Source: Candidatus Curtissbacteria bacterium RIFCSPHIGHO2_01_FULL_41_11
GTDB lineage: Bacteria; Patescibacteriota; Microgenomatia; Curtissbacterales; GWA2-41-24
Assembly (NCBI GenBank): GCA_001776335.1
Contig: MFAZ01000012.1
Location: 1-42,127 of the forward strand
Length of the DNA: 42,127 bases
Direction: 5' to 3'
Shown: one piece after another, positions 1,942-15,103 of the stretch
How positions within the stretch are numbered: the stretch's first letter is position 1
Layout: each line of letters starts with the position of its first letter
Translations under genes and position numbers: made by a program
The notes under the pieces: model-generated
Database searches by the model: none
Told to the model about the DNA's origin: nothing
The model's input: only the letters and a program-made list of their open reading frames with translations

Positions 1942-3144
1942 ATGAATAAAACCATAGTCGTTGGTGTGACAGGCAGCATTGCCGCATTTAAATCTTTGGA
2001 GCTAGTAAGAGAACTGAAAAAAGAAGGCCTGAACGTCGAGGTCGTCATGACCAAAAGTGCGGCCCGAATTATCCCGGCGGAAAAATTTCAAAAAGCATCG
2101 GGTAAAAAAGTCTACCTGGAGCTTTTCGAAAAAGATTTTAACTATCAAAATGTTCTAAAGAAGCGTGAGGTCGAACACATCGAACTTGCAAAAAAGGCAG
2201 ACGTTGTGGTTATCGCACCGGCAACTGCCGACATTATCGCCAAAATCGCAAACGGTATCGCAGACGATTGCTTAACAACTACAATTTTGGCAACCACTGC
2301 CCCCGTCATTATTTGTCCTGCCATGAACACTAATATGTGGAACAATCCGCTCACTTGCGAAAATATTTCTAAACTTAAAAAACTCGGATTTTTGATCATA
2401 GAGCCGACTTCCGGAATGTTAGCCTGTGGCGACGTGGGCAAGGGGAAGTTAATGGAGATTTCTCAAATTAAAAAAGAAGTCTTAACAGAACTTAGATACA
2501 CCCAAAATCTCAAAGGTAAAAGGATAATTGTCACATCCGGTGCAACCTCGGAAAAAATAGACGCCGTCCGTTATATAACTAATCGCAGCTCGGGCAAAAT
2601 GGGCATAGCAATAGCCGAGGAATGCAAAAGACAAGGAGCGGATATTTTACTTCTGAGATCCAAAAATTCAAAACAGCCTCGCTATCTTATAAAAGAACAG
2701 CTATTCTCATCCACAAACGATCTCTTAAATCTGGTTCGAACAAACGTTAAAAATTATGATTATTTTTATCACGCGGCTGCAGTATCGGATTTTTCCGTTA
2801 AAAATCCCAAAATAGGTAAACTTTCAAGTACCAGCAGACAAAAAATAGAATTAGAACCTCAAATAAAAATCATTGACGAGATTAAAAAATTCAATCCCAA
2901 AATACATTTAATTGGCTTCAAAACTATCTTTGATTATCCCCGAAAAGACCAGGAAGAAGCTGGACGGCAAAAACTGCTGCAATCAAAAGCGGACGCCATA
3001 ATAGTTAACGACATCAGCAAAAATGGGCAAGGCTTCGAATCAGACTTTAATGAAGTTTTAATTGTTAGCCCTAAAAATACTCTGAGGCTTCCGCTTGCAA
3101 CTAAAACAGATCTCGCCAGAAAAATTGTCGCTCTCCTAAATTAA
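1942..3144 (+). CDS. coaBC: Bifunctional phosphopantothenoylcysteine decarboxylase / phosphopantothenate-cysteine ligase (Dfp)
   Basis: Flavoprotein half: VGVTGSIAAFKS, PAMNTNMWNNP, ACGDVGKGKL. Ligase half: ITNRSSGKMG, HAAAVSDF. The 400-aa length is typical of fused CoaBC. Confidence 0.9.
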   Translation: MNKTIVVGVTGSIAAFKSLELVRELKKEGLNVEVVMTKSAARIIPAEKFQKASGKKVYLELFEKDFNYQNVLKKREVEHIELAKKADVVVIAPATADIIAKIANGIADDCLTTTILATTAPVIICPAMNTNMWNNPLTCENISKLKKLGFLIIEPTSGMLACGDVGKGKLMEISQIKKEVLTELRYTQNLKGKRIIVTSGATSEKIDAVRYITNRSSGKMGIAIAEECKRQGADILLLRSKNSKQPRYLIKEQLFSSTNDLLNLVRTNVKNYDYFYHAAAVSDFSVKNPKIGKLSSTSRQKIELEPQIKIIDEIKKFNPKIHLIGFKTIFDYPRKDQEEAGRQKLLQSKADAIIVNDISKNGQGFESDFNEVLIVSPKNTLRLPLATKTDLARKIVALLN

Positions 3145-3251: not shown

Positions 3252-4862
3252 ATGGAGCAACATCCTGTCCCCCAGCATATAGCTTCTTTTGAATTTAAAC
3301 TCTTCTGGAATCTCACCGTCCGCCAATTTGTAACCTTGGCTATTCCGATGTCCCTGGCAGCTGCTATATTTTTTTCCTCTCTGCCAAGCTTACTCCGCTA
3401 TCCATTTTCGGGTGTTATTGCTCTTTTTGCCTTCTTTGCAGCTCTTGTCCCGATAAATGGCCGCCCGCTTGATAAATGGCTCGTTTCTTTTATAAAAGCC
3501 GTTACTTCTCCAACCCAAAGGCTCTGGGTTAAAGAACCAAAAATTCCTGAATTTTTAAACATTGTAATATCACCTTCTCCGCAAGAAGAAAAAGTTCCGG
3601 AAACTATTACTTCTCAGGGTCGTGAAAGACTTAGAGCCTACCTCAGATCGCTTCCAAAGGGGACTTATACTCCGTTTGACGTTAAGGAACAAATTGCAGT
3701 CGAAAGACTGGGGCTCCAACCTGGTCAATTAGCTCCAGGCGGATTCTCAACACAAGGTACTCTTCCGCCTCCAATTATCTGGCCGACTACAACAGGAGCC
3801 GGCAGATACGTTTACACTGGTCCCTCTGTACCCCAAGTTTCCGCCGCTCCCGGGCTTTCAATGTCTCAAATGCCCGCAGGATCTACCACCCCTAGGCTTC
3901 AATTAGACGAACAGTACGAAGGCTCCATGGAAGAAGCCCTTCCTCCGACTGCACCGACCAGAACTGCAGCTGCTCCAAAAATCACTCTCCATGCCAAACC
4001 ATACGCCTTGCCCGGCCTGGAAAAAAAGCTTCAGAAAAAAACCAAAGCTGAGCATATCGAACTTGCCCCGACTGCACCCCTTGTAAAAGCCCAGATTGCT
4101 TCAGAAACCAATCCGGCAGTAGAAAATGTAATCTCAATAAGAACGCCGGACAGAAAAATTAAGCTAATCCATGGCGTCGGCCAAACCAGAGTAAGAAAGC
4201 TCCATTTTGCACCTCCGGAAGGATTCGATCTTTCAAAGATGCCAATTCGCGGCGAAAAAAGATTCGAGATTTCCCAGGAGCTGAAAAGCCGTTTTACGGT
4301 TGATAATGACTTATTCGAAGAAAAACAGGCTCCTGCTCCACCTGTTGTTCTGCCAACGGCACCCCAGACCGTCTCCTATACCCCGGAAAATCCTGAATTC
4401 AAACAATCTTCACAAGCACCCATGCCAGATAAAATTCACTTCATCCCAAAAAATAAAGTGGTTCAACCTACTACCGGTGTAACCCTTAAAAAAGATGAGG
4501 CTGAGAACCTTGAAGCCAAAATCTCAGTCGGTGGAGAAAAAACACCCCACATCCCCTTATCCGGGACAACCGGCAGAGCCCAAATCGTCCCCCTAACAAA
4601 TACCCCTAACGTTATTTCCGGTATTGTTACCGATCAGGAAGGTAATCCGGTAGAAAGCGCCATTCTTATCATAAAAGATTCCACTGGAATTCCTGTAAGA
4701 GCGCTTAAAACAAACAAGCTGGGACAATTTCTTTCGGCAACGCCCCTAAACGATGGCCCATATTCCATCGAAGTCGAATCTGATGAGAAAAATTTTGATG
4801 CCATGTCTTTAATGCTGGCAGGAAAAATTATTGATCCTTTGCAAATAAAATCAAAAAACTAA
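3252..4862 (+). CDS. PrgI-family (VirB3-like) membrane protein with a long P/T/Q-rich extension and a C-terminal CarboxypepD_reg-like beta-sandwich
   Basis: The N-terminus HPVPQHIASFEFKLFWNLTVRQFVTL plus two hydrophobic helices fits the PrgI signature. The C-terminal ISGIVTDQEGNPVESAILIIKDSTGIPVRALKTNKLGQF...YSIEVES (about 4614-4799) fits the carboxypeptidase-regulatory-like fold. It is the first gene of the T4SS-like operon. Confidence 0.65.
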   Translation: MEQHPVPQHIASFEFKLFWNLTVRQFVTLAIPMSLAAAIFFSSLPSLLRYPFSGVIALFAFFAALVPINGRPLDKWLVSFIKAVTSPTQRLWVKEPKIPEFLNIVISPSPQEEKVPETITSQGRERLRAYLRSLPKGTYTPFDVKEQIAVERLGLQPGQLAPGGFSTQGTLPPPIIWPTTTGAGRYVYTGPSVPQVSAAPGLSMSQMPAGSTTPRLQLDEQYEGSMEEALPPTAPTRTAAAPKITLHAKPYALPGLEKKLQKKTKAEHIELAPTAPLVKAQIASETNPAVENVISIRTPDRKIKLIHGVGQTRVRKLHFAPPEGFDLSKMPIRGEKRFEISQELKSRFTVDNDLFEEKQAPAPPVVLPTAPQTVSYTPENPEFKQSSQAPMPDKIHFIPKNKVVQPTTGVTLKKDEAENLEAKISVGGEKTPHIPLSGTTGRAQIVPLTNTPNVISGIVTDQEGNPVESAILIIKDSTGIPVRALKTNKLGQFLSATPLNDGPYSIEVESDEKNFDAMSLMLAGKIIDPLQIKSKN

Positions 4863-5927
4863 ATGTCAAAAAAACAGGTTAAGGCAAAAGCATCAACTCA
4901 AGAGCATTTGGATATAGACGACATAGTAGACGACCTTGTGCTTCTTAAAACCGGTTGGGTTGCATGTGTTATGTCCACAACCGCAGTTAATTTTGACCTG
5001 CTTTCAGAAGCCGAACAAGATGCCACTATCTACGCTTTCGGTGCTTTCTTGAATTCGCTTTCCTTCCCTTTGGAAATTCTTATCCGCTCTAAGAAGGCAG
5101 ACATAACCTCCTATTTCCAAAGTTTGGAAGAAGCCGAGGTTGCTCAGCCGAATCCGGATATCAAAAGACAAATTCAAAAGTACAAGGACTTTATCCAATC
5201 AACAGTTCAGCAAAAAACAGTTCTTGATAAAAAATTCTATTTTATAATAAATTTCTCTCCTGTTGAGCTTGGTTTAAAAGGCGGGCTTTCTGGTAAAAAG
5301 GCAGGTGCCGGGAGTAAATCTCAATTATTAACGGACGCCAAAACTGCCCTTGCGCCAAAACGAGACCACATCATAAAACAAACCTCAAGACTCGGCTTAA
5401 CTACCAAACAACTTACAACTCAGGAGTTAATCGAGTTGTTTTATGATATCTACAATCCCGCCCCCACCGGAACCCAAAGAGTTCTTTTAGACACTGACGC
5501 CTACACCACGCCCTTGGTCGAGCCAGCAGTCGAGGTCCCAATTCCCGCCCCTGTCCAAATACCTCAACAACCTGCTCCGCCACCTTCACCCCTAATTAAT
5601 CCAGTCCAAGAAGCAACCGCACCCGTCTCAGGGTTAGACCTAAGACAAAAAATTTCCCCTATACAAGAACCTTCGGCACCGGAACTTCGTCCTGTAGACC
5701 CGAGGCCTCAAGTTGCACCCCCGCCTAACCTTGCACCCCATCAGGCCCGCCCGCCAACGACTGCAGCCGTAGGCTCTGTCGGGCAGGCAGAAGCATTAAA
5801 AAATTTACAAGCGGCAACTTCTCAAGCTGCCCAGTTTACCCAGCCTGCAGGCGGGCAGGCCAACAGACCAACACCAAACCCAACAATAAATCAAAACCCA
5901 AATGTCAAAACTGAAAACTATAACTAA
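4863..5927 (+). CDS. VirB4 N-terminal-domain-like protein without ATPase motifs, with a Pro-rich C-terminal tail
   Basis: Its ATG abuts the upstream TAA (4860-4865). HLDIDDIVDDLVLLKTGWVACVMSTTAVNFDLLSEAEQDATIYAFGAFLNSLSFPLEILIRSKKAD resembles, from memory, the N-terminal domain of Gram-positive VirB4 ATPases (Tn916 Orf16/ConE type). No Walker A or B motif is present. The last ~130 aa are Pro-rich low complexity. Confidence 0.55.
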   Translation: MSKKQVKAKASTQEHLDIDDIVDDLVLLKTGWVACVMSTTAVNFDLLSEAEQDATIYAFGAFLNSLSFPLEILIRSKKADITSYFQSLEEAEVAQPNPDIKRQIQKYKDFIQSTVQQKTVLDKKFYFIINFSPVELGLKGGLSGKKAGAGSKSQLLTDAKTALAPKRDHIIKQTSRLGLTTKQLTTQELIELFYDIYNPAPTGTQRVLLDTDAYTTPLVEPAVEVPIPAPVQIPQQPAPPPSPLINPVQEATAPVSGLDLRQKISPIQEPSAPELRPVDPRPQVAPPPNLAPHQARPPTTAAVGSVGQAEALKNLQAATSQAAQFTQPAGGQANRPTPNPTINQNPNVKTENYN

Positions 5928-5950
5928 AAAATTAATAATAATTAAAATAA

Positions 5951-5969
5951 AAGCTAACAAAGTTAGCTT
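5951..5969 (+). other. Perfect 8-bp stem / 3-nt loop hairpin between the VirB4-N-like gene and virB4
   Basis: AAGCTAAC (5951-5958) aaa GTTAGCTT (5962-5969). No U-tract follows, so it is not a canonical terminator. Confidence 0.4.
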
Positions 5970-5973
5970 CCAT

Positions 5974-6008
5974 AACTTTGAACTTTTAACTTTGAACTTT
6001 TAACTTTT
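5974..6008 (+). repeat. Heptamer tract AACTTTG/AACTTTT x5 immediately upstream of the virB4 start
   Basis: Units at 5974, 5981, 5988, 5995 and 6002. TGA/TAA at 5979, 5987, 5993 and 6001 cover all three frames. The tract ends 3 nt before the ATG at 6012. Confidence 0.85.
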
Positions 6009-6011
6009 TGT

Positions 6012-7907
6012 ATGAGTATCTTTAACCCTTTTTCCAAACCACAGCCGAAACAAACCCCATTAACTGCCAAAGAACAGCAATGGGCACAGACGCTGTCTGC
6101 TGGCACGGTTTCCGTCAAAGACATAATCGCCCCGCCGGCAATTGAAGTCGACTTTGATTTTCTCAAGGTAGGATCCACCTATTACCGCACATTGTTTGTT
6201 GTAGGTTATCCAAGATATGTTCAGGCAAATTGGCTTGCACCTTTAATTAACTTTGAACACACTCTGGAAATATCCATGTACACCTATCCTGTCGAGGCAA
6301 AAGGCGTTTTAGATGATCTCAGAAGAAAAATCACCGAAATGGAAGCAACCATCGCCACAGATATTCAACATGGTCGTCTCATCGACCCTGCGGTCCAAGC
6401 AGCTCTCGAGGATGCCCATATGCTTCAGGAAGAACTCGTCAAAGGTGCAGAACGATTCTTCCAGTTTGCCCTTTATGTCACAATCCCTGCAGATTCCATT
6501 GAAGAGTTGAATACAATCACCAAACAAGTTGAGTCTACGCTTGGCTCACTTCTGCTGGTCCCTAAACACGCCACACTTCAACAGGAAGACGCTTTCAAAA
6601 CCACCTTGCCTCAAGGCACAGACCATATTTATATCACCCGCAACATGGACACAACATCTCTGGCTACCACTTTCCCATTCATCTCCTCGTCTCTAACCTC
6701 AAACACAGGCGTTATGTACGGCATAAACGAACACAACGGTTCATTGGTTATTTTCGATAGGTTTAGCCAGGAAAATGCCAATTCCGTGATTTTTGCCAAA
6801 TCCGGAGCCGGAAAATCCTATCTGGTAAAACTCGAAGCCCTTAGGTCTCTCATGTTTGGAACAGAAGTAATTGTTATCGACCCCGAAGAAGAATACAAAA
6901 ATCTTTGCGAAGCAATTGGCGGGGAGTATATTTCCTTTAGCTTCAGTTCTCCGGCCAAAATCAACCCGTTTGATCTTTCTGGAATCTACGAAGAAGGTGA
7001 AAATGAACTCGGTCTTAAAATTCTTTCTCTCCATGGCCTGTTGAAAGTCATTATGGGAGAACTCACTCCCGCAGAAGATGCCATTTTAGACAGAGCCCTT
7101 GTTGCAACTTACAAAGCAAAGGGTATAACACCCGATCCGGCAACTCAACAGAATGAACCGCCTCTTATGGAAGACCTGTACAAGGCTCTTCTGGGAATGG
7201 AAGACCCCGGCGCCAAAGGCCTTGCCGACAGGCTTGAACGCTTCGTCAAAGGTTCACTTTTGGGAATTTTTAATCAGCAAAGCAATATCGATATCAAAAA
7301 CACTTTTACTGTTTTTTCAATTAAAGATCTTGAAGACGAACTTCGACCAATCGCCATGTTTCTGATTCTCGACTTTATTTGGACCAGAGTTAAAAACGAC
7401 ATCAGAAAACGTTTGCTCGTGGTGGACGAGGCTTGGTACATGCTTCAGTATCCTGACAGCGCAACGTTCATGTACAGTATCGCCAAACGCGCCAGAAAAT
7501 ATTATCTGGGACTAACTACAATTACCCAAGACGTCGAAGACTTTTTAAATACGGATTACGGCAAAGCAATTGTTACCAACTCCTCCATCCAGATTCTTTT
7601 AAAACAATCTCCGGCAGCCATCGATCAAGTAGCCGATGTCTTCTATCTCTCCGAAGGAGAAAAACACTTGCTTTTGGCAGCAGACATAGGAGAAGGCATA
7701 TTTTTTGCTGGCCCCAATCATGTTGCAATTCGTGTAATAGCTTCACAGGACGAACACTATTTGGTTACCACAAATCCTGAAGAAGTTATGGAAATGCAGA
7801 AAAAAGCCGAAGAAACCGAACAGCAGTTCCAACAGCAGCCTGCCTCGCCGACTGGCGGGCCTGCCTCGCCGACTGGCGGGCCTCCCCAAAATCCGCAAAC
7901 TCAATAG
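6012..7907 (+). CDS. virB4: VirB4/PrgJ-family type IV secretion ATPase
   Basis: Walker A FAKSGAGKSYLVK and Walker B RLLVVDEAWYML. N-terminal VirB4-type block YYRTLFVVGYPRYV. The C-terminal tail PASPTGGPASPTGGP is encoded by GC-rich 21-nt repeats. Confidence 0.85.
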   Translation: MSIFNPFSKPQPKQTPLTAKEQQWAQTLSAGTVSVKDIIAPPAIEVDFDFLKVGSTYYRTLFVVGYPRYVQANWLAPLINFEHTLEISMYTYPVEAKGVLDDLRRKITEMEATIATDIQHGRLIDPAVQAALEDAHMLQEELVKGAERFFQFALYVTIPADSIEELNTITKQVESTLGSLLLVPKHATLQQEDAFKTTLPQGTDHIYITRNMDTTSLATTFPFISSSLTSNTGVMYGINEHNGSLVIFDRFSQENANSVIFAKSGAGKSYLVKLEALRSLMFGTEVIVIDPEEEYKNLCEAIGGEYISFSFSSPAKINPFDLSGIYEEGENELGLKILSLHGLLKVIMGELTPAEDAILDRALVATYKAKGITPDPATQQNEPPLMEDLYKALLGMEDPGAKGLADRLERFVKGSLLGIFNQQSNIDIKNTFTVFSIKDLEDELRPIAMFLILDFIWTRVKNDIRKRLLVVDEAWYMLQYPDSATFMYSIAKRARKYYLGLTTITQDVEDFLNTDYGKAIVTNSSIQILLKQSPAAIDQVADVFYLSEGEKHLLLAADIGEGIFFAGPNHVAIRVIASQDEHYLVTTNPEEVMEMQKKAEETEQQFQQQPASPTGGPASPTGGPPQNPQTQ

Positions 7908-7937
7908 CCTGCCTCGCCGACTGGCGGGCCTGCCTCG
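7839..7937. repeat. GC-rich 21-nt hairpin unit CCTGCCTCGCCGACTGGCGGG: 2 copies, a 27-nt spacer, then 1.4 copies, straddling the virB4 stop
   Basis: Copies at 7839-7859, 7860-7880 and 7908-7928, with a partial copy at 7929-7937. The TAG stop (7905-7907) lies in the spacer. Each unit has an internal stem CTCGCC/GGCGGG with loop GACT. Confidence 0.85.
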
Positions 7938-7980
7938 TGCTAATATGGAAGTAAGCCTGTAAATTCTGGCCAATTGGGTC

Positions 7981-10900
7981 ATGCCTGCTGCCACTGCCGA
8001 AAATTTAGAACCCATAAATCCAACAAAACTCGCAGACGCCATTCGCTGGTCGATAGAATATTTGCTTGACCCAAAGCGTGGAGGCGGTAAATCGCTGCCT
8101 TCAGATAAAGAACTCAAACTCCGCTACCAAAATCCTCAGATAACCCAAAAGCTTATTAATTTCGAGGTGCTGAACCGCTTCTCTGTAAATTCGATAGAAA
8201 AAATTCAGGATCTTGAACAACAAAAGATACAAGAAGTGTTGGGGAAAACTGGGCAAGAGCAAGAGCAAAATCAGTCAACTATAAATCAAGCCGCAGTTCC
8301 CAAAACCCAGGCAAAAATAATTCAGTTCCCCTCATCAAAAAGAGTATCAGCGCTTGGTGTTTTGGCTGAAATCGATACTGTTTTGGAAAATCACAAAAAT
8401 TCCATAAGCCCCAAACTTACCGCCGATTTATCACCAAAGATCAAGGAACTCCTGCCAAAGTTAGGCATCAAAAACTTAAGCGAAGAACAACTTAATAAAA
8501 TAGCTCAGGAAGTCGCTGTTGAAACATCGCGTCAAACATTAGAAGACGCCCATAAAATTCAAAACGTATCGCAAATAAATGACCTGGTCGCAGACAGTCT
8601 AACCCAGACACTTATCACCCATCCGGAAATCGCGGGGAAAATCAAAGACGAGCCTACAAAAGTTTTCCAAAAAATTTGGGGTCAAACCAAGGAAATCTCA
8701 ACAAGCAACCAAAATGACCTGGAAAAAGCGGCAGCCCTTGCAAATCTAGACGAAATTGCCGAACTTCAAAAACCCGATCAAGCAGTCGAGGAAGCACTTA
8801 CAACAAGTGCCAGAGACACAGTAGAATCGCAAGAACCCTTGGGTGGATCACAACTTCAGGAAAATATAAAAGGCAACTTTAAAAGCTATTTATCAGATTA
8901 CGTAAAAGAAGTGGATACTCAACTATCAAAATTACCAAAAGGCGAAGTCCCAAGTCTTGAAGAGCTTCAAAAATTAAAAGATGCAGCGCATACCAACGCG
9001 CAAGAAACACAAGGCGGCAAACAAAGTGGCACCAAGATAGACTACAAAAATGCTGCGGATACTCTGGCAAACTCACTAAACCTGGCACAAATTCAACCAA
9101 AAAGTGCGCCAAACCTACCAGTAGTTATAGAAACAATTGTCAATAATCCCACATACGGCAAAAAGCTGTACCTCGCCGCCCTTGGCCACGACGAACAAAC
9201 TCTTGCCAAAAGCCTGAAGGAAAAATCCGAAATAATCGAAAGGCTTAAAAGCAAAAAGTCGCTGACTTTAAAAGAGGCCAAACAACTGTCCGAAGCGAAG
9301 CTTTACTGGGCAAAATACGCTCAAGCCCAAGCATTAAAAGTAAAAAATCCCAAACAATACCAGGCGCTTCTTAGTATTCTCTCCAAAATGGGTGATGGAC
9401 GAGCTGAACTTGTCTCCCAATCAGTCTGGCAATCGGAGCGTTTCCTCCAGGCGAAAATGCCCAAAATTTTTGCCTACAACGAACGACTCACCGCTGGAGC
9501 TGCCTTTGGGAAACTCGGTTTCAATATCGGTGGCATGGGCATCGGATCTATATTCTCAAATATCAAAGGCCAGATAAGCGCTGCCTCAATGCTCGGCATG
9601 GGCATGGCTTCGACCAAATCAATAAATAAGATCCGGAATCAAATCACTGCAGCAATCGGTGCGCCAATCGCAGGTCTTATGCTCTATCTTATGAGTCTTG
9701 GCCAAGCTGCAGTCACCGGCGCCATTATCGGCATGGGCACAGGTGCTTTAGCAGGGGCCGTCATCCCTGTCGCCTTTTTAGGTCCTGCCGGCGTCCTTCT
9801 TTGGCCGGTCACAGTTCCTCTTGGCATTGTTATGGGTGGCGCAGCCGGCGCACTAATCGGACTGGGTATAGCATCCGGCAGTGCCACTATGATTTCGATG
9901 GGCGCAGCCGGCGCAACCGGCGCTTTAATAGGCGGCTACATTGGATTTGGGGTTGGAGCAGGAATTGGAACATTTTTGGCCGGCGTATGTATTACATTTA
10001 CCGCAGGACTATGTGCACCATTCGCACCATTTATTGTCATCGGATCAACAGCAATAGGCACTGCAATTGGCGCTGCCATCGGGTTTGTCGTTGGCCTTGC
10101 AACCGGCTATTTGATCGGCAAATTCTTGATAACTCCATTAATGTCCGGCGTCAAAAGCGCTCTTGGCGGAATCGGTGCCGGGGCCGGGGCAGGGTTAGGC
10201 CTTCTCAACTCCCTCTATGGGCTGGCGACTGGCCTTCTCCATACCGGTATAGGCGCTATAAGTTCAATAGGAGGTGGTCTGCTTAGCGGACTGTCCGGTG
10301 GTCTAAGCATGATTGTTAATGGTCTTGGTTTTGGTGGTGCTGCAACAGCAAGCGCTGCCGCAATACCCGTCCTTTCCACATTTGGCGTTGTTGGAGTAAC
10401 GGGAGCTATGACCGCAGTCATCGTCCCCGCAGCCATCTTCGCCACAATTGCCGGCGATGAAATCACCCCTATTATTACACCTGGCCAAAATCAATATTTT
10501 TCCCTCACCAAATCCGCTGTCCCGGACAAAATTCCAAACTCAGCGCTTCCCTCACAGATAGATTACACGATAACACTAGAAGCCAAAGTCAATCTGGAAA
10601 ATATTCAAATCACAGACGTGCTCAAGGTTCAAAAGCAAAGCACTAGTTTTGAGCTGTCACCCGACCCGTGCACCGGCACCTTACCGCAAACCCTGCAAGC
10701 CGGAGACCCGCCGTGGACCTGCAATTTCTCAGTTACAGTAGACATAAATTTCGAAGACTCTTTGGTGGCCAATACTGTAACTGTAAAAGCAACACCTGAA
10801 GGCCAGGCGGAATTCACGGACCACTCAACCGCGACAACGATTATAGGAAATCCCCCCACAATCTGCGCGATATTAAATATTGAAGGTCCATGGTCACAGG

Positions 10901-11415
10901 AAGAAAAAGACAACATAAACTCCATTTGCCAAGTCCTCGATCAGTCTCCTCAATATGTTTCTCTGTTGCAAAGAGCTGGCACAATTACACTCCAACGTGT
11001 TCCAGGTGGAACCTTGGGAGAAGGGGTCTGTGGCACAGTCAATGGAGGCAACATCGTAAGAATTTCATGTTCCATGACACCCATAAGCTTCGCAAAATAC
11101 GTAATTATCCATGAATTAGGGCACGTCTTGGGGAATTACAATGGCGCGCTTTTTAATGATTTTATATCGACCTATAACCAAGAAGGCCTTGTGCCAACCT
11201 ATCCTTTTGATGTAGAGAGTGCCGATGAATCTTTCGCGGAAATGACAACAGAATATGTAGTCTCTAAAGAATACAATCACCCTCCAAGATCATGGTCGGG
11301 ATACCCGGGAGGCCCATGGATCAACCCCGGGCCAGGGTGGACAACATTCCAACAAGATAGACCTGCTCACTATGATTTTGCTAAATCCAAAGTATTTGGC
11401 GGCAAGGAATACTGA
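7981..11415 (+). CDS. Giant polytopic membrane protein in the VirB6/PrgH position: soluble N-terminal region, Gly/Ala-rich multi-TM core, C-terminal zincin (HExxH) domain
   Basis: The first ~480 aa are K/E/Q-rich and soluble. Residues ~500-830 (about nt 9480-10470) are extremely G/A-rich, with many GxxxG-type hydrophobic helices. The C-terminus carries HELGH (11110-11124) and a downstream DESFAEM (11224-11244). Confidence 0.7.
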   Translation: MPAATAENLEPINPTKLADAIRWSIEYLLDPKRGGGKSLPSDKELKLRYQNPQITQKLINFEVLNRFSVNSIEKIQDLEQQKIQEVLGKTGQEQEQNQSTINQAAVPKTQAKIIQFPSSKRVSALGVLAEIDTVLENHKNSISPKLTADLSPKIKELLPKLGIKNLSEEQLNKIAQEVAVETSRQTLEDAHKIQNVSQINDLVADSLTQTLITHPEIAGKIKDEPTKVFQKIWGQTKEISTSNQNDLEKAAALANLDEIAELQKPDQAVEEALTTSARDTVESQEPLGGSQLQENIKGNFKSYLSDYVKEVDTQLSKLPKGEVPSLEELQKLKDAAHTNAQETQGGKQSGTKIDYKNAADTLANSLNLAQIQPKSAPNLPVVIETIVNNPTYGKKLYLAALGHDEQTLAKSLKEKSEIIERLKSKKSLTLKEAKQLSEAKLYWAKYAQAQALKVKNPKQYQALLSILSKMGDGRAELVSQSVWQSERFLQAKMPKIFAYNERLTAGAAFGKLGFNIGGMGIGSIFSNIKGQISAASMLGMGMASTKSINKIRNQITAAIGAPIAGLMLYLMSLGQAAVTGAIIGMGTGALAGAVIPVAFLGPAGVLLWPVTVPLGIVMGGAAGALIGLGIASGSATMISMGAAGATGALIGGYIGFGVGAGIGTFLAGVCITFTAGLCAPFAPFIVIGSTAIGTAIGAAIGFVVGLATGYLIGKFLITPLMSGVKSALGGIGAGAGAGLGLLNSLYGLATGLLHTGIGAISSIGGGLLSGLSGGLSMIVNGLGFGGAATASAAAIPVLSTFGVVGVTGAMTAVIVPAAIFATIAGDEITPIITPGQNQYFSLTKSAVPDKIPNSALPSQIDYTITLEAKVNLENIQITDVLKVQKQSTSFELSPDPCTGTLPQTLQAGDPPWTCNFSVTVDINFEDSLVANTVTVKATPEGQAEFTDHSTATTIIGNPPTICAILNIEGPWSQEEKDNINSICQVLDQSPQYVSLLQRAGTITLQRVPGGTLGEGVCGTVNGGNIVRISCSMTPISFAKYVIIHELGHVLGNYNGALFNDFISTYNQEGLVPTYPFDVESADESFAEMTTEYVVSKEYNHPPRSWSGYPGGPWINPGPGWTTFQQDRPAHYDFAKSKVFGGKEY

Positions 11416-11990
11416 TGGCAGAATTCAATCTCATCCGGATTTCAAAACTTATTAAATCAGAACTGCTTCTAATAATTTTAGGAGTTCTCTCAATTACAAT
11501 TTTTTCTATAGCTGTCATAAGCTTCACAAAAAGAGGAAAGGCACCGCCACCCGCACAAACACCTTGGAACGAAAATATTTATGCAGGCCAAACAACTAAG
11601 CAGGAACTTGAAACGAAGCTGGGTACCCCCGAAAAGATTGAAGCAATTGATGAAGGGGTCGCTTATTTTTACCCCACGGAAGACAGGTACAGACCGGACA
11701 AAATAGAAATCAGTGGGGATACTGTTTCTATAATCAAAGAACAGGTTCTCGAGTCAGAAAAAGGGGGCTTGAATAATTATTTACAAAAATATGGTACACC
11801 ACAGGCAAAGTTATATGGCCCATTCGGAACAATTGCGCCTGGGCATTTCTGGGGGAATAACGGAATTATTGTATTTGGGAATGAACATGACGGTACTATA
11901 GTAGAAATTTGGTATTTTGCACCGACCAATTTAGAAAATTTTCTTGCGCAAAACACCAAACTGAAGACGGAAGAACCTCGAGGTTTTTAA
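11415..11990 (+). CDS. Small N-terminally membrane-anchored protein; last gene of the T4SS-like operon
   Basis: TGATG start/stop overlap with the upstream gene (11413-11417). One N-terminal TM helix (LLLIILGVLSITIFSIAVISF), then a ~150-aa soluble domain. I recognised no family. Confidence 0.6.
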   Translation: MAEFNLIRISKLIKSELLLIILGVLSITIFSIAVISFTKRGKAPPPAQTPWNENIYAGQTTKQELETKLGTPEKIEAIDEGVAYFYPTEDRYRPDKIEISGDTVSIIKEQVLESEKGGLNNYLQKYGTPQAKLYGPFGTIAPGHFWGNNGIIVFGNEHDGTIVEIWYFAPTNLENFLAQNTKLKTEEPRGF

Positions 11991-12289
11991 AAACTCCTAA
12001 ACCTCAAACTTCTCACAATCTTCTTCCCCAACGTCTCATTAATGTCTCGCATCAGCCCACCAGCGCGCATCTGAAGTTCGCTTGACATCAAACCGGGAGA
12101 CTTAACCGTCAACACCCCTTTTTTAAAAGACGTAGGTCTTGCCGTTTTTAAAACACTCTCCGGTAAATCACCGCAAACTTTTTTTAGCGAATCAAAAAAA
12201 GCGCGTCGTACATGAAGAGCGACAATTGCATCTGGGGTCTTGGATCGTTTTGGTAGTGTCTTGATAAGATCACCGACTTGGGTAAACAC
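11987..12289 (-). CDS. dciA: DUF721/DciA-like protein (putative replicative-helicase operator)
   Basis: 100 aa with a GTG start. SFKKGVLTVKSPGLMSSELQMRAGGLMRDINETLGKKIVRSLRF fits the DUF721 pattern. It sits in the classic position directly downstream of dnaN. Confidence 0.6.
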   Translation of the reverse strand: MFTQVGDLIKTLPKRSKTPDAIVALHVRRAFFDSLKKVCGDLPESVLKTARPTSFKKGVLTVKSPGLMSSELQMRAGGLMRDINETLGKKIVRSLRFRSF

Positions 12290-12301
12290 AGCATTAGTTT
12301 A

Positions 12302-12343
12302 CTAGTTGCTAGTGGCTAGTTGCTAGTGGCTAGTGGCTAACTT
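12302..12343. repeat. Heptamer tract CTAGTTG/CTAGTGG x5 plus CTAACTT, filling the dnaN-dciA spacer
   Basis: Units at 12302, 12309, 12316, 12323, 12330 and 12337. The palindromic CTAG gives TAG in all six frames. The dnaN TAG stop (complement of 12337-12339) lies in the last unit. Confidence 0.9.
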
Positions 12344-13464
12344 TGCAGTCGGACCGGCATGACAATATGAAAGTAATCTCCTTCGTCAGGAATTGTAATT
12401 CGCCCGGGGTTCAAGCTTTCAATCATTTCGAAAAAAATATCATCGCTTTCGATAGATGATAAAACCTCGAGAAGATAACGAAAGTTGAAGGCAATTTCTC
12501 CTCCATTCCCGGTAAGTTCGATTTCCGAAGAGGCTTCATCCGACCCCACCTGATTGTTATTTGCAGAAACTGTCAAAATCCCTTTCGCCCCACCTTCAAG
12601 TTTTAGCTTAATAATGTTCCCTGAATCGCGGGCAAAAATAGACGCTACTCTTACCAGCCTTATCAGTTCTTCTCTAGAAATTTTGGCTTTTGAAGAAAAG
12701 CTCGTAGGGATAATTTTCTGCCAAGGGGGGAATTCACCCTCAATAAGTCTCGAGGTAAACTCCACATTGCCTATCCCAAAATTTACCTGATTCAAAGCAT
12801 CCGCCACAGTAACCAGGACAGGCTTGCCGCTTGCTTCTTCCCCAGCTTCACTGATTATTTTGAAAACCTCAAACAACGTTCTGGCGGGTGTTATTATCTT
12901 ACCCACAAAATCACCCTCTGCCGAAAACTGCTGGAAGCTTAACCTGTAACCATCGGTCGCTACCATTGAAAAGCTCTTTTTGGAAAACTCACACAGAACG
13001 CCCACAAGAGCCGGCCTCCCCTCGTCTTGTGAAGCCGAAAATGCCACCCTTAATATTGCTTTTGAAAACTCAAGTGCATCCAAAACCAGAGTTTTCCCTT
13101 TGTCTATTTTTGGTATCGCTGGGAAATCTTCAATAGGCATTGTCGCAAATCTCGCGCTAAATCTTTTGGAAGAAACCTTGACCTCCTCACCCAGTTTTTC
13201 AACAATCATCTCCCCTGGGGGTACCTGAGCGACAAATTCGGAAATTGGCCTCCCAGGGACCGTTGTTTTGCCTTCAACTTCAACATTGCATTCGGTATTT
13301 ACCCGCGTAGCAGTTTCCAAATCCGTCGAAAGAACCTCTATTTTCCCCTTGGAGGCAGAAATTAAAATGTTTGTGAGGATGGGCAGGTTTGCTTTTGTTT
13401 GAAGTGATTTATTTACGGAAACAAGCAGTTTGGAAAATTCTTCCTGGGAAATTTTAAATTTCAT
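12337..13464 (-). CDS. dnaN: DNA polymerase III beta sliding clamp
   Basis: MKFKISQEEFSKLLVSVNKSLQTKANLPILTNILISA..., with three-domain clamp length and a position downstream of dnaA. I prefer the ATG at 13464. The ORF-track start at 13521 is a GTG that would add 19 aa. Confidence 0.9.
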   Translation of the reverse strand: MKFKISQEEFSKLLVSVNKSLQTKANLPILTNILISASKGKIEVLSTDLETATRVNTECNVEVEGKTTVPGRPISEFVAQVPPGEMIVEKLGEEVKVSSKRFSARFATMPIEDFPAIPKIDKGKTLVLDALEFSKAILRVAFSASQDEGRPALVGVLCEFSKKSFSMVATDGYRLSFQQFSAEGDFVGKIITPARTLFEVFKIISEAGEEASGKPVLVTVADALNQVNFGIGNVEFTSRLIEGEFPPWQKIIPTSFSSKAKISREELIRLVRVASIFARDSGNIIKLKLEGGAKGILTVSANNNQVGSDEASSEIELTGNGGEIAFNFRYLLEVLSSIESDDIFFEMIESLNPGRITIPDEGDYFHIVMPVRLQS

Positions 13465-13521
13465 TTTTTCTTTGAGGATTCTTGTTGGGGCAGAAACATC
13501 GCCATTATATAGATTTTCCAC

Positions 13522-13727
13522 AAATTTTTAAACACCCAATCTCAAACTAAAGTTATATCAAAAATAGTAATATTCTTAGTATTCTTGTTTATATCTTAAA
13601 AACCAAGAGCCGCACCTGCCTGGAATTATGTCGAAAAAATTGTGGAAAACCTTCCACTTGTTGTTGATAAGTATGAAATTTTTGTGGGGGAACACAATGT
13701 TTTTGTAGAAAAGCTTTATGAGAAATA
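13522..13727. promoter_or_regulatory. Candidate oriC: AT-rich stretch plus a same-orientation cluster of DnaA-box-like 9-mers in the dnaA-dnaN spacer
   Basis: TGTGGAAAA at 13641-13649. TGTTGATAA at 13662-13670 (1 mismatch to TGTGGATAA). TGTGGGGGA at 13683-13691 (weak). TGTAGAAAA at 13704-13712. An AT-rich segment spans about 13522-13610. Confidence 0.5.
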
Positions 13728-15080
13728 TTATTGTTGGAAAATTGCCCTTATTCTCGAAATTTCGTCCCGTTGGCTTTGGTCAACAGCAACTAACCCCTCT
13801 ACCTTCTCTACACCATAAAGAACAGTGGAGTGATCTCGACCGCCGGTAATGTCGCCTACTCCCTCTAGGGGAAGACCCAAATCTTTTCTAAGTAAATACA
13901 TTAAAACTTGCCTGGCTCGAACAAAAGAGGCCTTTCTCTTTGGTCCGCACAAATCACCACTACTCAACCTAAAATGCCTAGACACTGCCTCAATAACCTT
14001 TCCTGGAGTTGGTTTTGGCTTGTTATCTCGCAAATTATTTTCAACAGAGCGCTTGACTTGCTCTAGAGTCAAAAGGCCAGATGACAACCTCAAAAGAGCA
14101 AGAACCTGAACCAAAGTTCCTTCAAGCTCTCTTGCGCCGCTTCCGCAAACATTCGCAATATAATCAATGATCTCGTTTGATAAAGCAACTCCCTTCTCCT
14201 TACACCTTGCTTTAAGAATTGCTGCTCGAAGCTCCACATCCGGAAGCTGTATATCAACTGTCATCCCACCCATCAGCCTACTTGCCAGCCTGTCTTGTAA
14301 TTTCCCAAGATCTTTAGGGTGCCTGTCTGCTGCAACTATTATTTGTCGCCCGGACATGTAAAGCTCATTGAAAGTGTAAAAAAATTCGTCTTGGGTACTT
14401 TCCTTGCCGGCGAAAAACTGTATGTCGTCAACCAGTAAAACATCCACGCCGCGGTATTTCTGCCTAAAAGCAGCTGTAGTGCGGCTGTTTAATGACTCGA
14501 TATAGTCGTTAGTAAATTTCTCAGCGCTGGCATAAAGCACTTTGGCATCAATAGATTTGTTCAATATCTCATTTGCAACCGCTTGCATTAAATGAGTTTT
14601 ACCAACGCCAGTTGGCCCCCAGACAAAAAGAGGGTTATACGCGTGACCAGGATTTTGAGCAGTCTGAGAGAAGGCAAGATAAGCAAGGTTATTTGAAGGA
14701 CCGGTCACAAAACGCTCAAAATTGTGAGCCGGATTAATACTTTCGTTTTTCCTAACGGTACCAAAGTACACTGGCGCTTCCCCAGAAAAAAGCGGTGTAG
14801 TAAAAGCCGGTTTATCAGTTTCCTCTTTCGAAACAATAAAAACTACCTCCCCAGAAAAACCGTTTTTTTCTGCAACCGTATTTATTTGCAATCGATACCT
14901 CGTTTCAAGCTGTTCTTTAATGAAATTATTTTTAACGCCAATGATCAAAATATCCCGCTCGTCTGATTTTTTAAGATCCAAAACTCGTGAACCGCCAAAC
15001 CACGTTCTGTAAGTTGACGGAGAAATTTGTGCTTTAAGGCCACTTAATATTTTGGCCCAAACTTTTTGACCACAGTTCAT
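13728..15080 (-). CDS. dnaA: Chromosomal replication initiator DnaA
   Basis: Walker A GPTGVGKTHLMQA, Walker B VLLVDDIQF, C-terminal DNA-binding HTH (GGRDHSTVLYGVEKV). I prefer the ATG at 15080. The ORF-track start at 15089 is a TTG. Confidence 0.95.
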   Translation of the reverse strand: MNCGQKVWAKILSGLKAQISPSTYRTWFGGSRVLDLKKSDERDILIIGVKNNFIKEQLETRYRLQINTVAEKNGFSGEVVFIVSKEETDKPAFTTPLFSGEAPVYFGTVRKNESINPAHNFERFVTGPSNNLAYLAFSQTAQNPGHAYNPLFVWGPTGVGKTHLMQAVANEILNKSIDAKVLYASAEKFTNDYIESLNSRTTAAFRQKYRGVDVLLVDDIQFFAGKESTQDEFFYTFNELYMSGRQIIVAADRHPKDLGKLQDRLASRLMGGMTVDIQLPDVELRAAILKARCKEKGVALSNEIIDYIANVCGSGARELEGTLVQVLALLRLSSGLLTLEQVKRSVENNLRDNKPKPTPGKVIEAVSRHFRLSSGDLCGPKRKASFVRARQVLMYLLRKDLGLPLEGVGDITGGRDHSTVLYGVEKVEGLVAVDQSQRDEISRIRAIFQQ

Positions 15081-15103
15081 GTTATTCAAATAGTTTTTGA
15101 AAT

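Follow-up and report, generated by a model that had tools for sequence, protein, structure and literature searches.

A candidate type IV secretion-linked, exchangeable envelope peptidase with a covarying partner gene next to dnaA in a Curtissbacteria genome

Directly after the gene for a VirB4-type ATPase, in the gene cluster for a type IV secretion system (T4SS) of Candidatus Curtissbacteria bacterium RIFCSPHIGHO2_01_FULL_41_11, an ultra-small bacterium of the candidate phyla radiation, lies an open reading frame (ORF) for a protein of 1,144 residues that public databases name "hypothetical protein." What does a protein do that sits in the slot of a VirB6-type channel subunit and ends in the motifs of a metallopeptidase? 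We analyzed the stretch that holds this gene, positions 1 to 42,127 of the forward strand of contig MFAZ01000012.1 (assembly GCA_001776335.1), which is called the window below. Its T4SS locus is the one known from Patescibacteria, which is MPF-FATA-like (mating pair formation type FATA), lies beside dnaA, and lacks a relaxase (PMC12102498). No VirB6 and no consistent counterpart of VirB1 have been recognized in Microgenomatia (PMC12102498, PMC10633639). The reading that we favor, with a probability of about 0.55, is that the protein is linked to the T4SS and displays at the cell surface an exchangeable peptidase that cuts the envelope and has a cognate partner.

The zincin domain, its stalk, and the membrane block

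The initial annotation of this DNA, made from the letters alone, had divided the protein into a soluble, K/E/Q-rich part of ~480 aa, a Gly/Ala/Ile/Leu-rich membrane core with serial GxxxG motifs, and a beta-rich module followed by a zincin domain; it had likened that domain to M34-like gluzincins and had judged the protein no classical VirB6. The 1,144-aa ORF and its layout in several parts are present as described, and the parts are delimited as follows.

7981..11415, plus strand: scaffold-plus-peptidase protein of the T4SS cluster, 1,144 aa (whole ORF)
7981..9480, plus strand: N-terminal soluble K/E/Q/L-rich domain (aa 1 to 500), predicted to be cytoplasmic (composition, conservation)
9637..10455, plus strand: glycine-zipper polytopic membrane region (aa 553 to 825; GxxxG enrichment, period 4)
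10498..10845, plus strand: immunoglobulin (Ig)-like beta-sandwich stalk (aa ~840 to 955; AlphaFold2 [AF2] model, Foldseek)
10843..10866, plus strand: junction motif IGNPPTIC (aa 955 to 962), the point at which C-terminal domains ("warheads") are exchanged
10867..11412, plus strand: gluzincin peptidase domain (aa 963 to 1144) with an M34/Mx1-like fold (AF2, Foldseek, PDB profile search)
11110..11124, plus strand: HELGH (aa 1044 to 1048), with H1044 and H1048 as putative zinc ligands and E1045 as putative general base
11200..11202, plus strand: Y1074, an invariant Tyr, within one residue of the catalytic Y178 of PPEP-1 in a hidden Markov model (HMM) alignment
11227..11241, plus strand: ESFAE (E1083...E1087), the "Glu helix"; E1083 and E1087 align with E185, the zinc ligand, and E189 of PPEP-1

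Both zincin motifs lie where they had been placed, HELGH at 11110 to 11124 and DESFAEM (aa 1082 to 1088) at nucleotides 11224 to 11244, and the spacing given as about 40 residues is 38, counted from H1044. Given the composition of this 1,144-aa protein, HExxH is expected 0.006 times by chance. Word-indexed homologue searches returned only 2 and then 11 relatives; searching 1.84 billion cluster representatives exhaustively with HMMER gave 404, with 169 below 1e-10. Among the best 150 of these 404, HExxH (mostly HExGH) occurs in the last 200 residues of 116, and almost all of the other 34 have a different domain in place of the zincin. The fusion, which the initial annotation had wanted sought in other genomes, represents one state of a modular, widespread cassette, with HExxH in at least 116 cluster representatives. 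In two alignments (A1 and A2, of 33 and 45 sequences, with a mean column identity of ~28 to 30%), H1044, E1045, H1048, Y1074, E1083, and E1087 are invariant, and one of the two adds an invariant junction glycine. Conservation of the motif, on which the zincin proposal had been made to depend, holds in the form HExxH in every aligned homologue. Four Cys residues of the domain are invariant among close relatives. Close relatives of the domain come from metagenome-assembled genomes (MAGs) of Candidatus Curtissbacteria, and a genome-collection scan with a seven-sequence alignment returned only two Curtissbacteria MAGs. In one relative, P0063 (1,211 aa), KETGL replaces HExGH while DDFAE is kept; this protein may be a pseudoenzyme variant.

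The fold was examined with an AF2 model of aa 955 to 1144 (m611b61429d71; predicted local distance difference test [pLDDT] 91.3, predicted template modeling score [pTM] 0.90). HELGH lies on a helix (aa 1035 to 1053) and ESFAE on another (aa 1081 to 1094), both after a small beta-sheet, which places HELGH in a confidently modeled soluble domain and not in a transmembrane helix, the position that would have undone the proposal. Because Foldseek searches with a two-domain model were dominated by the Ig-like sandwich, the isolated peptidase domain was used instead. Its top PDB matches were anthrax lethal factor (LF), the Bacteroides caccae Mx1 peptidase 4l7a (second), and PPEP-1 and PPEP-2, with a probability of 1.0, template modeling (TM) scores of 0.5 to 0.56, and E values of ~1e-3. 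The top 26 PDB matches were all zincins (probability, 0.99 to 1.0; TM score, 0.47 to 0.56), and a viral structure library also returned zincin-type proteins. While a single-sequence phmmer search of the C terminus against PDB sequences found nothing, the family profile found 9urd_A, a [quoted passage not shown] (3.6e-4), 4l7a (4e-3), PPEP-1 (0.02), and LF (0.04 to 1.2). The metalloprotease fold is supported by both the modeled structure and the profile.

Curated families gave a different result. In Pfam and NCBIfam, no family exceeded its cutoff for any of the 45 zincin members, and there were scattered subthreshold matches to zincin families. The ATLF family (PF07737) did not match the window domain and matched one of the 45 members below threshold (E, 0.037), and Peptidase_Mx1 (PF15890) matched 13 of the 45, all below threshold (E of 0.0059 or higher). 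The traits of clan MA(E) gluzincins are present, namely, HExxH on a helix, a downstream Glu-helix residue as predicted ligand, and the zincin alpha/beta fold. So is the M34 trait of a Tyr shortly before the Glu ligand together with an EFFAE-like motif, since the consensus E-[SD]-F-A-E aligns with EFFAE. The earlier comparison with M34-like gluzincins therefore stands for the fold and the catalytic layout and fails for formal membership in M34 or Mx1, for which no profile scored above threshold. Because the AF2 model best matches LF, the PPEPs, and the Bacteroides Mx1 peptidase, we classify the modeled domain as an M34/Mx1-like gluzincin covered by no curated profile; it probably represents a sister family of Peptidase_Mx1. 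With at least 116 cluster representatives carrying HExxH, this is a new gluzincin family without a Pfam or NCBIfam model, and its invariant residues suggest that the peptidase is apparently active.

Comparison with the two nearest groups shows what is shared and what is not. The M34 enzymes (LF, PPEP-1 [also called Zmp1], and PPEP-2) are the best structural matches and share the catalytic layout of HExxH, a Tyr that precedes the Glu ligand by a few residues, and a Glu helix with E-x-F-A-E; PPEP-1 is also similar in size (~190 aa), and M34 enzymes are secreted or surface located, as is predicted for the window domain. On the other hand, the profile evidence is borderline for PPEP-1 and LF and subthreshold for ATLF, the Tyr-Glu spacing is 9 instead of the 7 of M34, close relatives of the window domain carry an extra C-terminal WSGYPGGPW segment, and in the window protein the peptidase is attached to a polytopic membrane scaffold that is encoded within a T4SS cluster. 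The Peptidase_Mx1 proteins of Bacteroidota (4l7a and 9urd) are the best sequence-profile matches, with an alignment that extends from the beta-strands ahead of HExxH through Y...E-D-F-x-E, and both they and, by prediction, the window domain are anchored at the cell surface. Mx1 proteins differ in being lipoproteins of SusC/D-type loci in diderms, without polytopic scaffold, Ig-like stalk, or T4SS context.

The beta-rich module reported ahead of the peptidase is real. An AF2 model of aa 830 to 1144 (m175479c8f18d) has seven long strands in aa ~840 to 955, with pLDDT above 90 over the strands, and Foldseek matched this stalk to CARDB, RbmA, and arrestin-like/Ig-like sandwiches. Its profile matches are weak (DUF7507, 0.003; DUF11).

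At the other end of the protein, the first 480 aa have the K/E/Q-rich composition that was claimed for them (L, 12%; K, 11%; A, 9%; E, 9%; Q, 9%), and the 1,144-aa protein has no signal peptide. This N-terminal part is a real conserved domain; 24 long relatives have kept it, whichever of the two warheads they carry. A K/R cluster (aa 487 to 552) precedes the first of two charge-free hydrophobic blocks, aa 553 to 713 and 726 to 825, which are split by K714/K725. The described Gly/Ala/Ile/Leu core is borne out by the composition of aa 500 to 828 (G, 22%; A, 17%; I, 12%; L, 11%) and by shuffling: GxxxG occurs 28 times versus 15.5 ± 3.1 in 2,000 composition-preserving shuffles of the region, and GxxxGxxxG occurs 14 times versus 3.3. 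None of the 2,000 shuffles reached either observed count, so the glycine zippers exceed an effect of composition. The autocorrelation of glycine has its peaks at lags 4 and 8, and the region thus has the serial GxxxG, the period of 4, and the hydrophobicity of transmembrane glycine zippers. Pfam Gly-zipper_Omp/YMGG families match homologues, with P0005 and P0046 passing the cutoff, and do not match the window protein. Judged by eye, aa 553 to 825 may hold about 8 to 10 membrane helices, the Kyte-Doolittle scan serving to delimit the hydrophobic blocks. P0003, P0004, and P0005 are orthologues of the protein, and P0003 is 40% identical. Another relative, P0012 (MBI3342258.1), is annotated at NCBI as a "sulfite exporter TauE/SafE family protein," presumably a false call from the Gly/Ala-rich membrane block.

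The judgment that this is no classical VirB6 holds: VirB6/TrbL/PrgH-type profiles of Pfam and NCBIfam did not match the window protein at an E value of 0.1 or below, nor nine HExxH-type homologues or ten stalk-only relatives at 0.01 or below. Like VirB6, TrbL, PrgH, and TcpH, the scaffold is polytopic and encoded beside VirB4, and the cluster has no other protein of this kind; it differs from them in the absence of profile similarity, in its low-complexity glycine zipper, and in having large soluble domains on both sides.

Stalk and zincin most likely lie outside the cytoplasmic membrane. We infer this because the stand-alone zincin homologue P0002 has an N-terminal signal or anchor sequence, because the short relatives P0043 and P0073 consist of a single N-terminal transmembrane helix followed directly by stalk and zincin, and because K/R residues stand ahead of the membrane block, with D826/E827 after it. 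The Ig-like, surface-type stalk, the invariant Cys residues, and the use of M23, an extracytoplasmic wall peptidase family, as an alternative warhead argue in the same direction.

Exchange of the C-terminal domain and its downstream gene

Many relatives match the stalk only, and Peptidase_M23 ends nine of the ten stalk-only proteins scanned. Two M23-type relatives locate the point of exchange. P0124 is 51% identical over aa 1 to 962, and homology ends at IGNPPTIC/IGTPPADC; P0020 is 33% identical over aa 11 to 962 and ends at the same junction. The motif [IVLF]GxPPxxC is present in 108 of 116 zincin variants, 26 of 33 M23 variants, and 2 of 3 other variants. The scaffold diverges fast, as seen in its 51% identity to P0124 next to ~89% for VirB4; in the P0124 locus (L007), VirB4 is 89% identical to the window VirB4 over the C-terminal 378 aa. 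Identity along the scaffold is also mosaic. Over aa 121 to 240 and 361 to 500, identity is 83% and 74% with the M23-type P0124, as against 50% and 31% with the zincin-type P0003; for stalk and warhead, P0003 comes closest (60% and 62%).

A third C-terminal type, "domain X," is ~220 aa long, Cys rich, and marked by VEASW...FISGR...DGAATAAKE. It occurs in three proteins (L002 2-1306, P0133, and P0138), where it sits on the same scaffold after an IGxPPxxNC junction. Domain X had no Pfam match; its sole match, to a BLIP-II repeat, was judged implausible. In L002, the domain X scaffold coexists with a separate secreted zincin and a zincin-type partner. Conserved N-terminal parts with variable C-terminal domains after a junction are as expected of polymorphic toxins.

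The M23 domains of P0020, P0124, and ~30 other M23-type relatives keep HxH, and in most of them the canonical spacing of HxxxD is missing, which rules out that they are plainly canonical. They share a conserved CPxGWP...QGPxGxxSH, the SH of which lies 4 to 15 residues before xEAIDI. These sequence patterns suggest a variant zinc site or an insertion.

The gene after the scaffold changes with the warhead. In the window, it is as follows.

11415..11990, plus strand: partner, 191 aa, N-terminally anchored

Its start codon overlaps the scaffold stop codon by 1 nt (TGATG). In six of six zincin loci (the window, L002, L004, L005, L006, and L008), the downstream gene belongs to one family of N-anchored proteins of 183 to 199 aa (BLAST E values of 1e-9 to 1e-71). 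This includes L002, where the zincin is a separate secreted protein of 236 aa and the same partner family still comes next. Four of four M23 loci (L003, L007, L009, and L010) have another downstream family, of 323 to 356 aa; four of its six pairs are significant (1e-7 to 1e-16), with all four loci joined through L003 or L009. Between the two families, BLAST E values are 0.07 or higher and the hhalign probability is 0.6%. Covariation of the downstream gene with the C-terminal domain, another trait of polymorphic toxins, is therefore present in this small sample. Taken together, these patterns suggest an exchangeable cassette made up of stalk, warhead, and partner, in which the partner is probably an inhibitor or immunity factor of the warhead.

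Candidate functions of the scaffold-borne peptidase

In the favored reading, the protein would be the large membrane subunit of a monoderm-type (MPF-FATA-like) T4SS cluster kept next to dnaA and dnaN, built from a cytoplasmic helical N-terminal domain, a charge-free glycine-zipper block, an extracytoplasmic Ig-like stalk, and a gluzincin of ~185 aa. In the predicted active site, H1044, H1048, and E1083 would bind zinc, with E1045 as general base, Y1074 stabilizing the transition state, and E1087 in the second shell. Presented outside the cytoplasmic membrane and tethered beside the T4SS machine, the peptidase would cut peptide bonds of an envelope, in peptidoglycan stems or cross-bridges or in wall-associated proteins; the wall could be the bacterium's own, that of a host bacterium, or both. 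The cut would open a path for the T4SS, and the translationally coupled, anchored 191-aa partner would limit damage to the producer. Of the two activities that the initial annotation had suggested, alternation with M23, as read from the sequences, favors envelope cutting over the processing of effectors. Fast scaffold divergence, warhead swapping, and partner covariation make us lean, short of proof, toward a host-facing role rather than an own-wall role of the VirB1/PrgK type.

Two groups of known systems come close to such a protein. VirB1-like hydrolases (PrgK of pCF10, TraG of pIP501, CwlT of ICEBs1, and TcpG of pCW3) are likewise encoded in MPF-FATA-type T4SS clusters, and they combine an N-terminal membrane anchor with an extracytoplasmic hydrolase domain, as the scaffold protein would if its predicted topology is right. 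Their domains are SLT, CHAP, NlpC/P60, or LytM, none of which is found in the window protein, which has a gluzincin instead, although paralogous scaffolds do carry Peptidase_M23/LytM. PrgK has a LytM/M23-type domain that matches the M23 variants of the scaffold (PMC12102498), and VirB1-like proteins sometimes carry M23, with M23 or lysozyme-type proteins noted near virB4 (PMC12102498). VirB1-like hydrolases have a single transmembrane anchor where the scaffold has a glycine-zipper block of ~270 aa and a cytoplasmic domain of 500 aa, and they have no described covarying partner gene. Polymorphic toxins (CdiA-CT, Rhs, and LXG) and the X-Tfe/X-Tfi pairs of Xanthomonas resemble the scaffold in having a conserved N-terminal part, unrelated C-terminal enzymes after a junction, and a next downstream gene that covaries with the C-terminal domain, and the warheads of the scaffold are of wall-hydrolase types, as in polymorphic toxin and X-Tfe systems. 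The scaffold differs as an integral membrane protein of the producer and in lacking VENN, PxxxxDPxGL, LXG, and XVIPCD motifs.

A more far-reaching version, which we offer tentatively and think less likely to be right than wrong, is that the cassette serves epibionts of the candidate phyla radiation as a polymorphic "wall-opener" and immunity module. The T4SS-tethered peptidase would breach the host wall, with its warhead type (M34-like zincin, M23-like, or domain X) swapped by recombination at IGxPPxxC to suit the host's peptidoglycan or surface chemistry, and would help set host range; the partner would protect the own envelope, and the glycine-zipper block with the 500-aa cytoplasmic domain might replace VirB6 and couple the VirB4 ATPase to the enzyme.

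Several points weigh against a T4SS-linked envelope peptidase. The closest solved relatives, LF and PPEP-1, cut proteins and not peptidoglycan, and no HExxH gluzincin is known to serve as a T4SS wall hydrolase. The arguments for an outside location are indirect, and the activity of the M23 variants is uncertain because most lack the canonical HxxxD spacing. Partner covariation was counted in 10 loci only, and the partner gave weak DUF4309/BamE-like hints, no PDB relative, and no informative homologue; it could be a structural subunit instead of an inhibitor. The link to the T4SS is one of synteny, and adjacency to VirB4 is weaker evidence than it appears because the whole origin-proximal region is conserved. 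In L009, the order is rearranged, with the PrgI and TraC-like genes divergently oriented, and the window contains neither a coupling protein nor a relaxase.

The same data bear on other explanations. One is a toxin-immunity system in which the peptidase would be released at IGxPPxxC and delivered to the host or to competitors as an antibacterial or host-lysing effector, with the downstream protein strictly an immunity factor. It would account for at least three unrelated C-terminal domains on one scaffold with a conserved junction motif, for the perfect covariation of the downstream gene in 10 loci, for the swap between genomes with ~89% identical VirB4, for the mosaic scaffold, and for the secreted stand-alone zincin that is followed by the same partner family. 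This account overlaps with the favored one and differs mainly in release and lethality. We regard it as possible but rather unlikely, given that no cleavage site or autoprotease is evident, that there is no coupling protein, and that the loci inspected hold one cassette each, with no orphan warhead or immunity arrays; moreover, a domain already outside after normal membrane insertion would not need the T4SS for export. At the opposite end, the zincin domain could be a catalytically dead binding module, or HELGH a chance motif. P0063, with its degenerate KETGL and preserved fold-level similarity, shows how such a module might look, but six invariant residues of catalytic type in alignments of 33 and 45 sequences, HExxH in 116 of the 150 best relatives, and the chance expectation of 0.006 make this very improbable.

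Two further explanations retain an active peptidase and change its task. The protein might be a divergent VirB6/PrgH-type channel subunit whose peptidase processes pilins, effectors, or other parts or substrates of the machine and leaves the envelope alone. Its place right after VirB4 as the only polytopic protein of the cluster would suit this, as would the scarcity of VirB6 homologues in Microgenomatia, attributed by the authors to extreme divergence (PMC12102498), and the fact that the M34 relatives are site-specific protein-cutting enzymes. The absence of TrbL/VirB6/PrgH profile matches across the window protein and the nine HExxH-type and ten stalk-only relatives searched, a membrane block that is a low-complexity glycine zipper and not a defined VirB6 fold, and the replacement of zincin by an M23-like domain in sister genomes, which is hard to square with specific processing, lead us to doubt it strongly. 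Alternatively, the gene could encode a housekeeping hydrolase for wall remodeling or division, or another envelope protease, that happens to lie in a conserved origin-proximal block with no functional tie to the T4SS. Synteny of the whole region across loci means that adjacency to VirB4 might be inherited context, and the stand-alone zincin P0002 fits such a role. Still, the gene shares the strand of VirB4 with an upstream gap of 73 nt, overlaps its partner by 1 nt, and stays beside T4SS genes even in the rearranged L009; fast evolution and warhead swapping are also atypical of housekeeping hydrolases, and we consider this explanation a poor one.

If the favored reading is right, the protein is a T4SS-associated envelope hydrolase. 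What had not been noted before is the uncurated M34/Mx1-like gluzincin family, the glycine-zipper scaffold, and the warhead-partner cassette. A literature search for this protein architecture found nothing, and a zincin is mentioned in neither PMC12102498 nor PMC10633639. The T4SS is widespread among Patescibacteria and lies at the replication origin; in the single species tested, a Saccharibacterium, it was essential to growth as an epibiont (PMC10633639). For the missing VirB6 and VirB1 equivalents of Microgenomatia, the family is a concrete candidate: a scaffold presenting an apparently active peptidase, with swapped warheads and a cognate partner gene. Should the target be the host wall, the cassette would be a molecular determinant of how microbial dark matter attacks its hosts and of its host range.

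The gene cluster beside dnaA

The genes from 3252 to 11990 all lie on the plus strand, separated by short gaps; the gap between the VirB4 stop codon and the scaffold gene is the 73 nt given above. Around the scaffold and partner genes, the cluster and its downstream neighbors are as follows.

3252..4862, plus strand: PrgI (VirB3-like) protein, 536 aa, with a CarboxypepD_reg-like beta-sandwich domain fused on at its C terminus
4863..5927, plus strand: TraC-like/TrsD-like protein, 354 aa, which is the N-terminal part of VirB4, here split in two
6012..7907, plus strand: VirB4-type ATPase (C-terminal part), 631 aa (NCBIfam conju_CD1110, 3.6e-118; Pfam P-loop_TraG and AAA_10)
11987-15089, minus strand: DciA, DnaN, and DnaA, directly downstream of the T4SS cluster

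The cluster abuts the replication origin, in line with the published observation for Patescibacteria, and YidC, Jag, and other origin-proximal genes follow further on from dnaA. The order PrgI-like, TraC-like, VirB4, scaffold, partner, dnaN, dnaA is shared by the window, L003, L004, L008, and L010, and dnaA, dnaN, rnpA, yidC, jag, and others are syntenic across loci. In the rearranged L009, the scaffold gene still adjoins T4SS genes. A separate TraC-like gene occurs in L003, L004, L008, and L010 as well; this recurrence marks the split of VirB4 as a conserved feature and not a frameshift. The combination of PrgI with a CarboxypepD_reg-like domain is also found in L003, L008, and L010.

Scanning the window for transfer RNAs and against Rfam gave no match. 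A small gene matching 23S_rRNA_IVP (PF05635) lies in or beside the T4SS cluster of the M23-type loci L003 (6738 to 7121) and L009 (2580 to 2936) and is absent from the window. Upstream of the window cluster, with coaBC (1942 to 3144) in between, a gene at 550 to 1917 encodes a 455-aa protein with a C-terminal OmpR-type winged helix (Trans_reg_C, 1e-20), without a receiver domain, and with a weak NACHT/P-loop hint at its N terminus. The C-terminal tail of VirB4 (aa ~607 to 631, window positions 7830 to 7907) contains a tandem PASPTGG repeat, and opposite this tail runs a spurious minus-strand ORF of 124 aa (7743 to 8117) with repeated RPASRRG.

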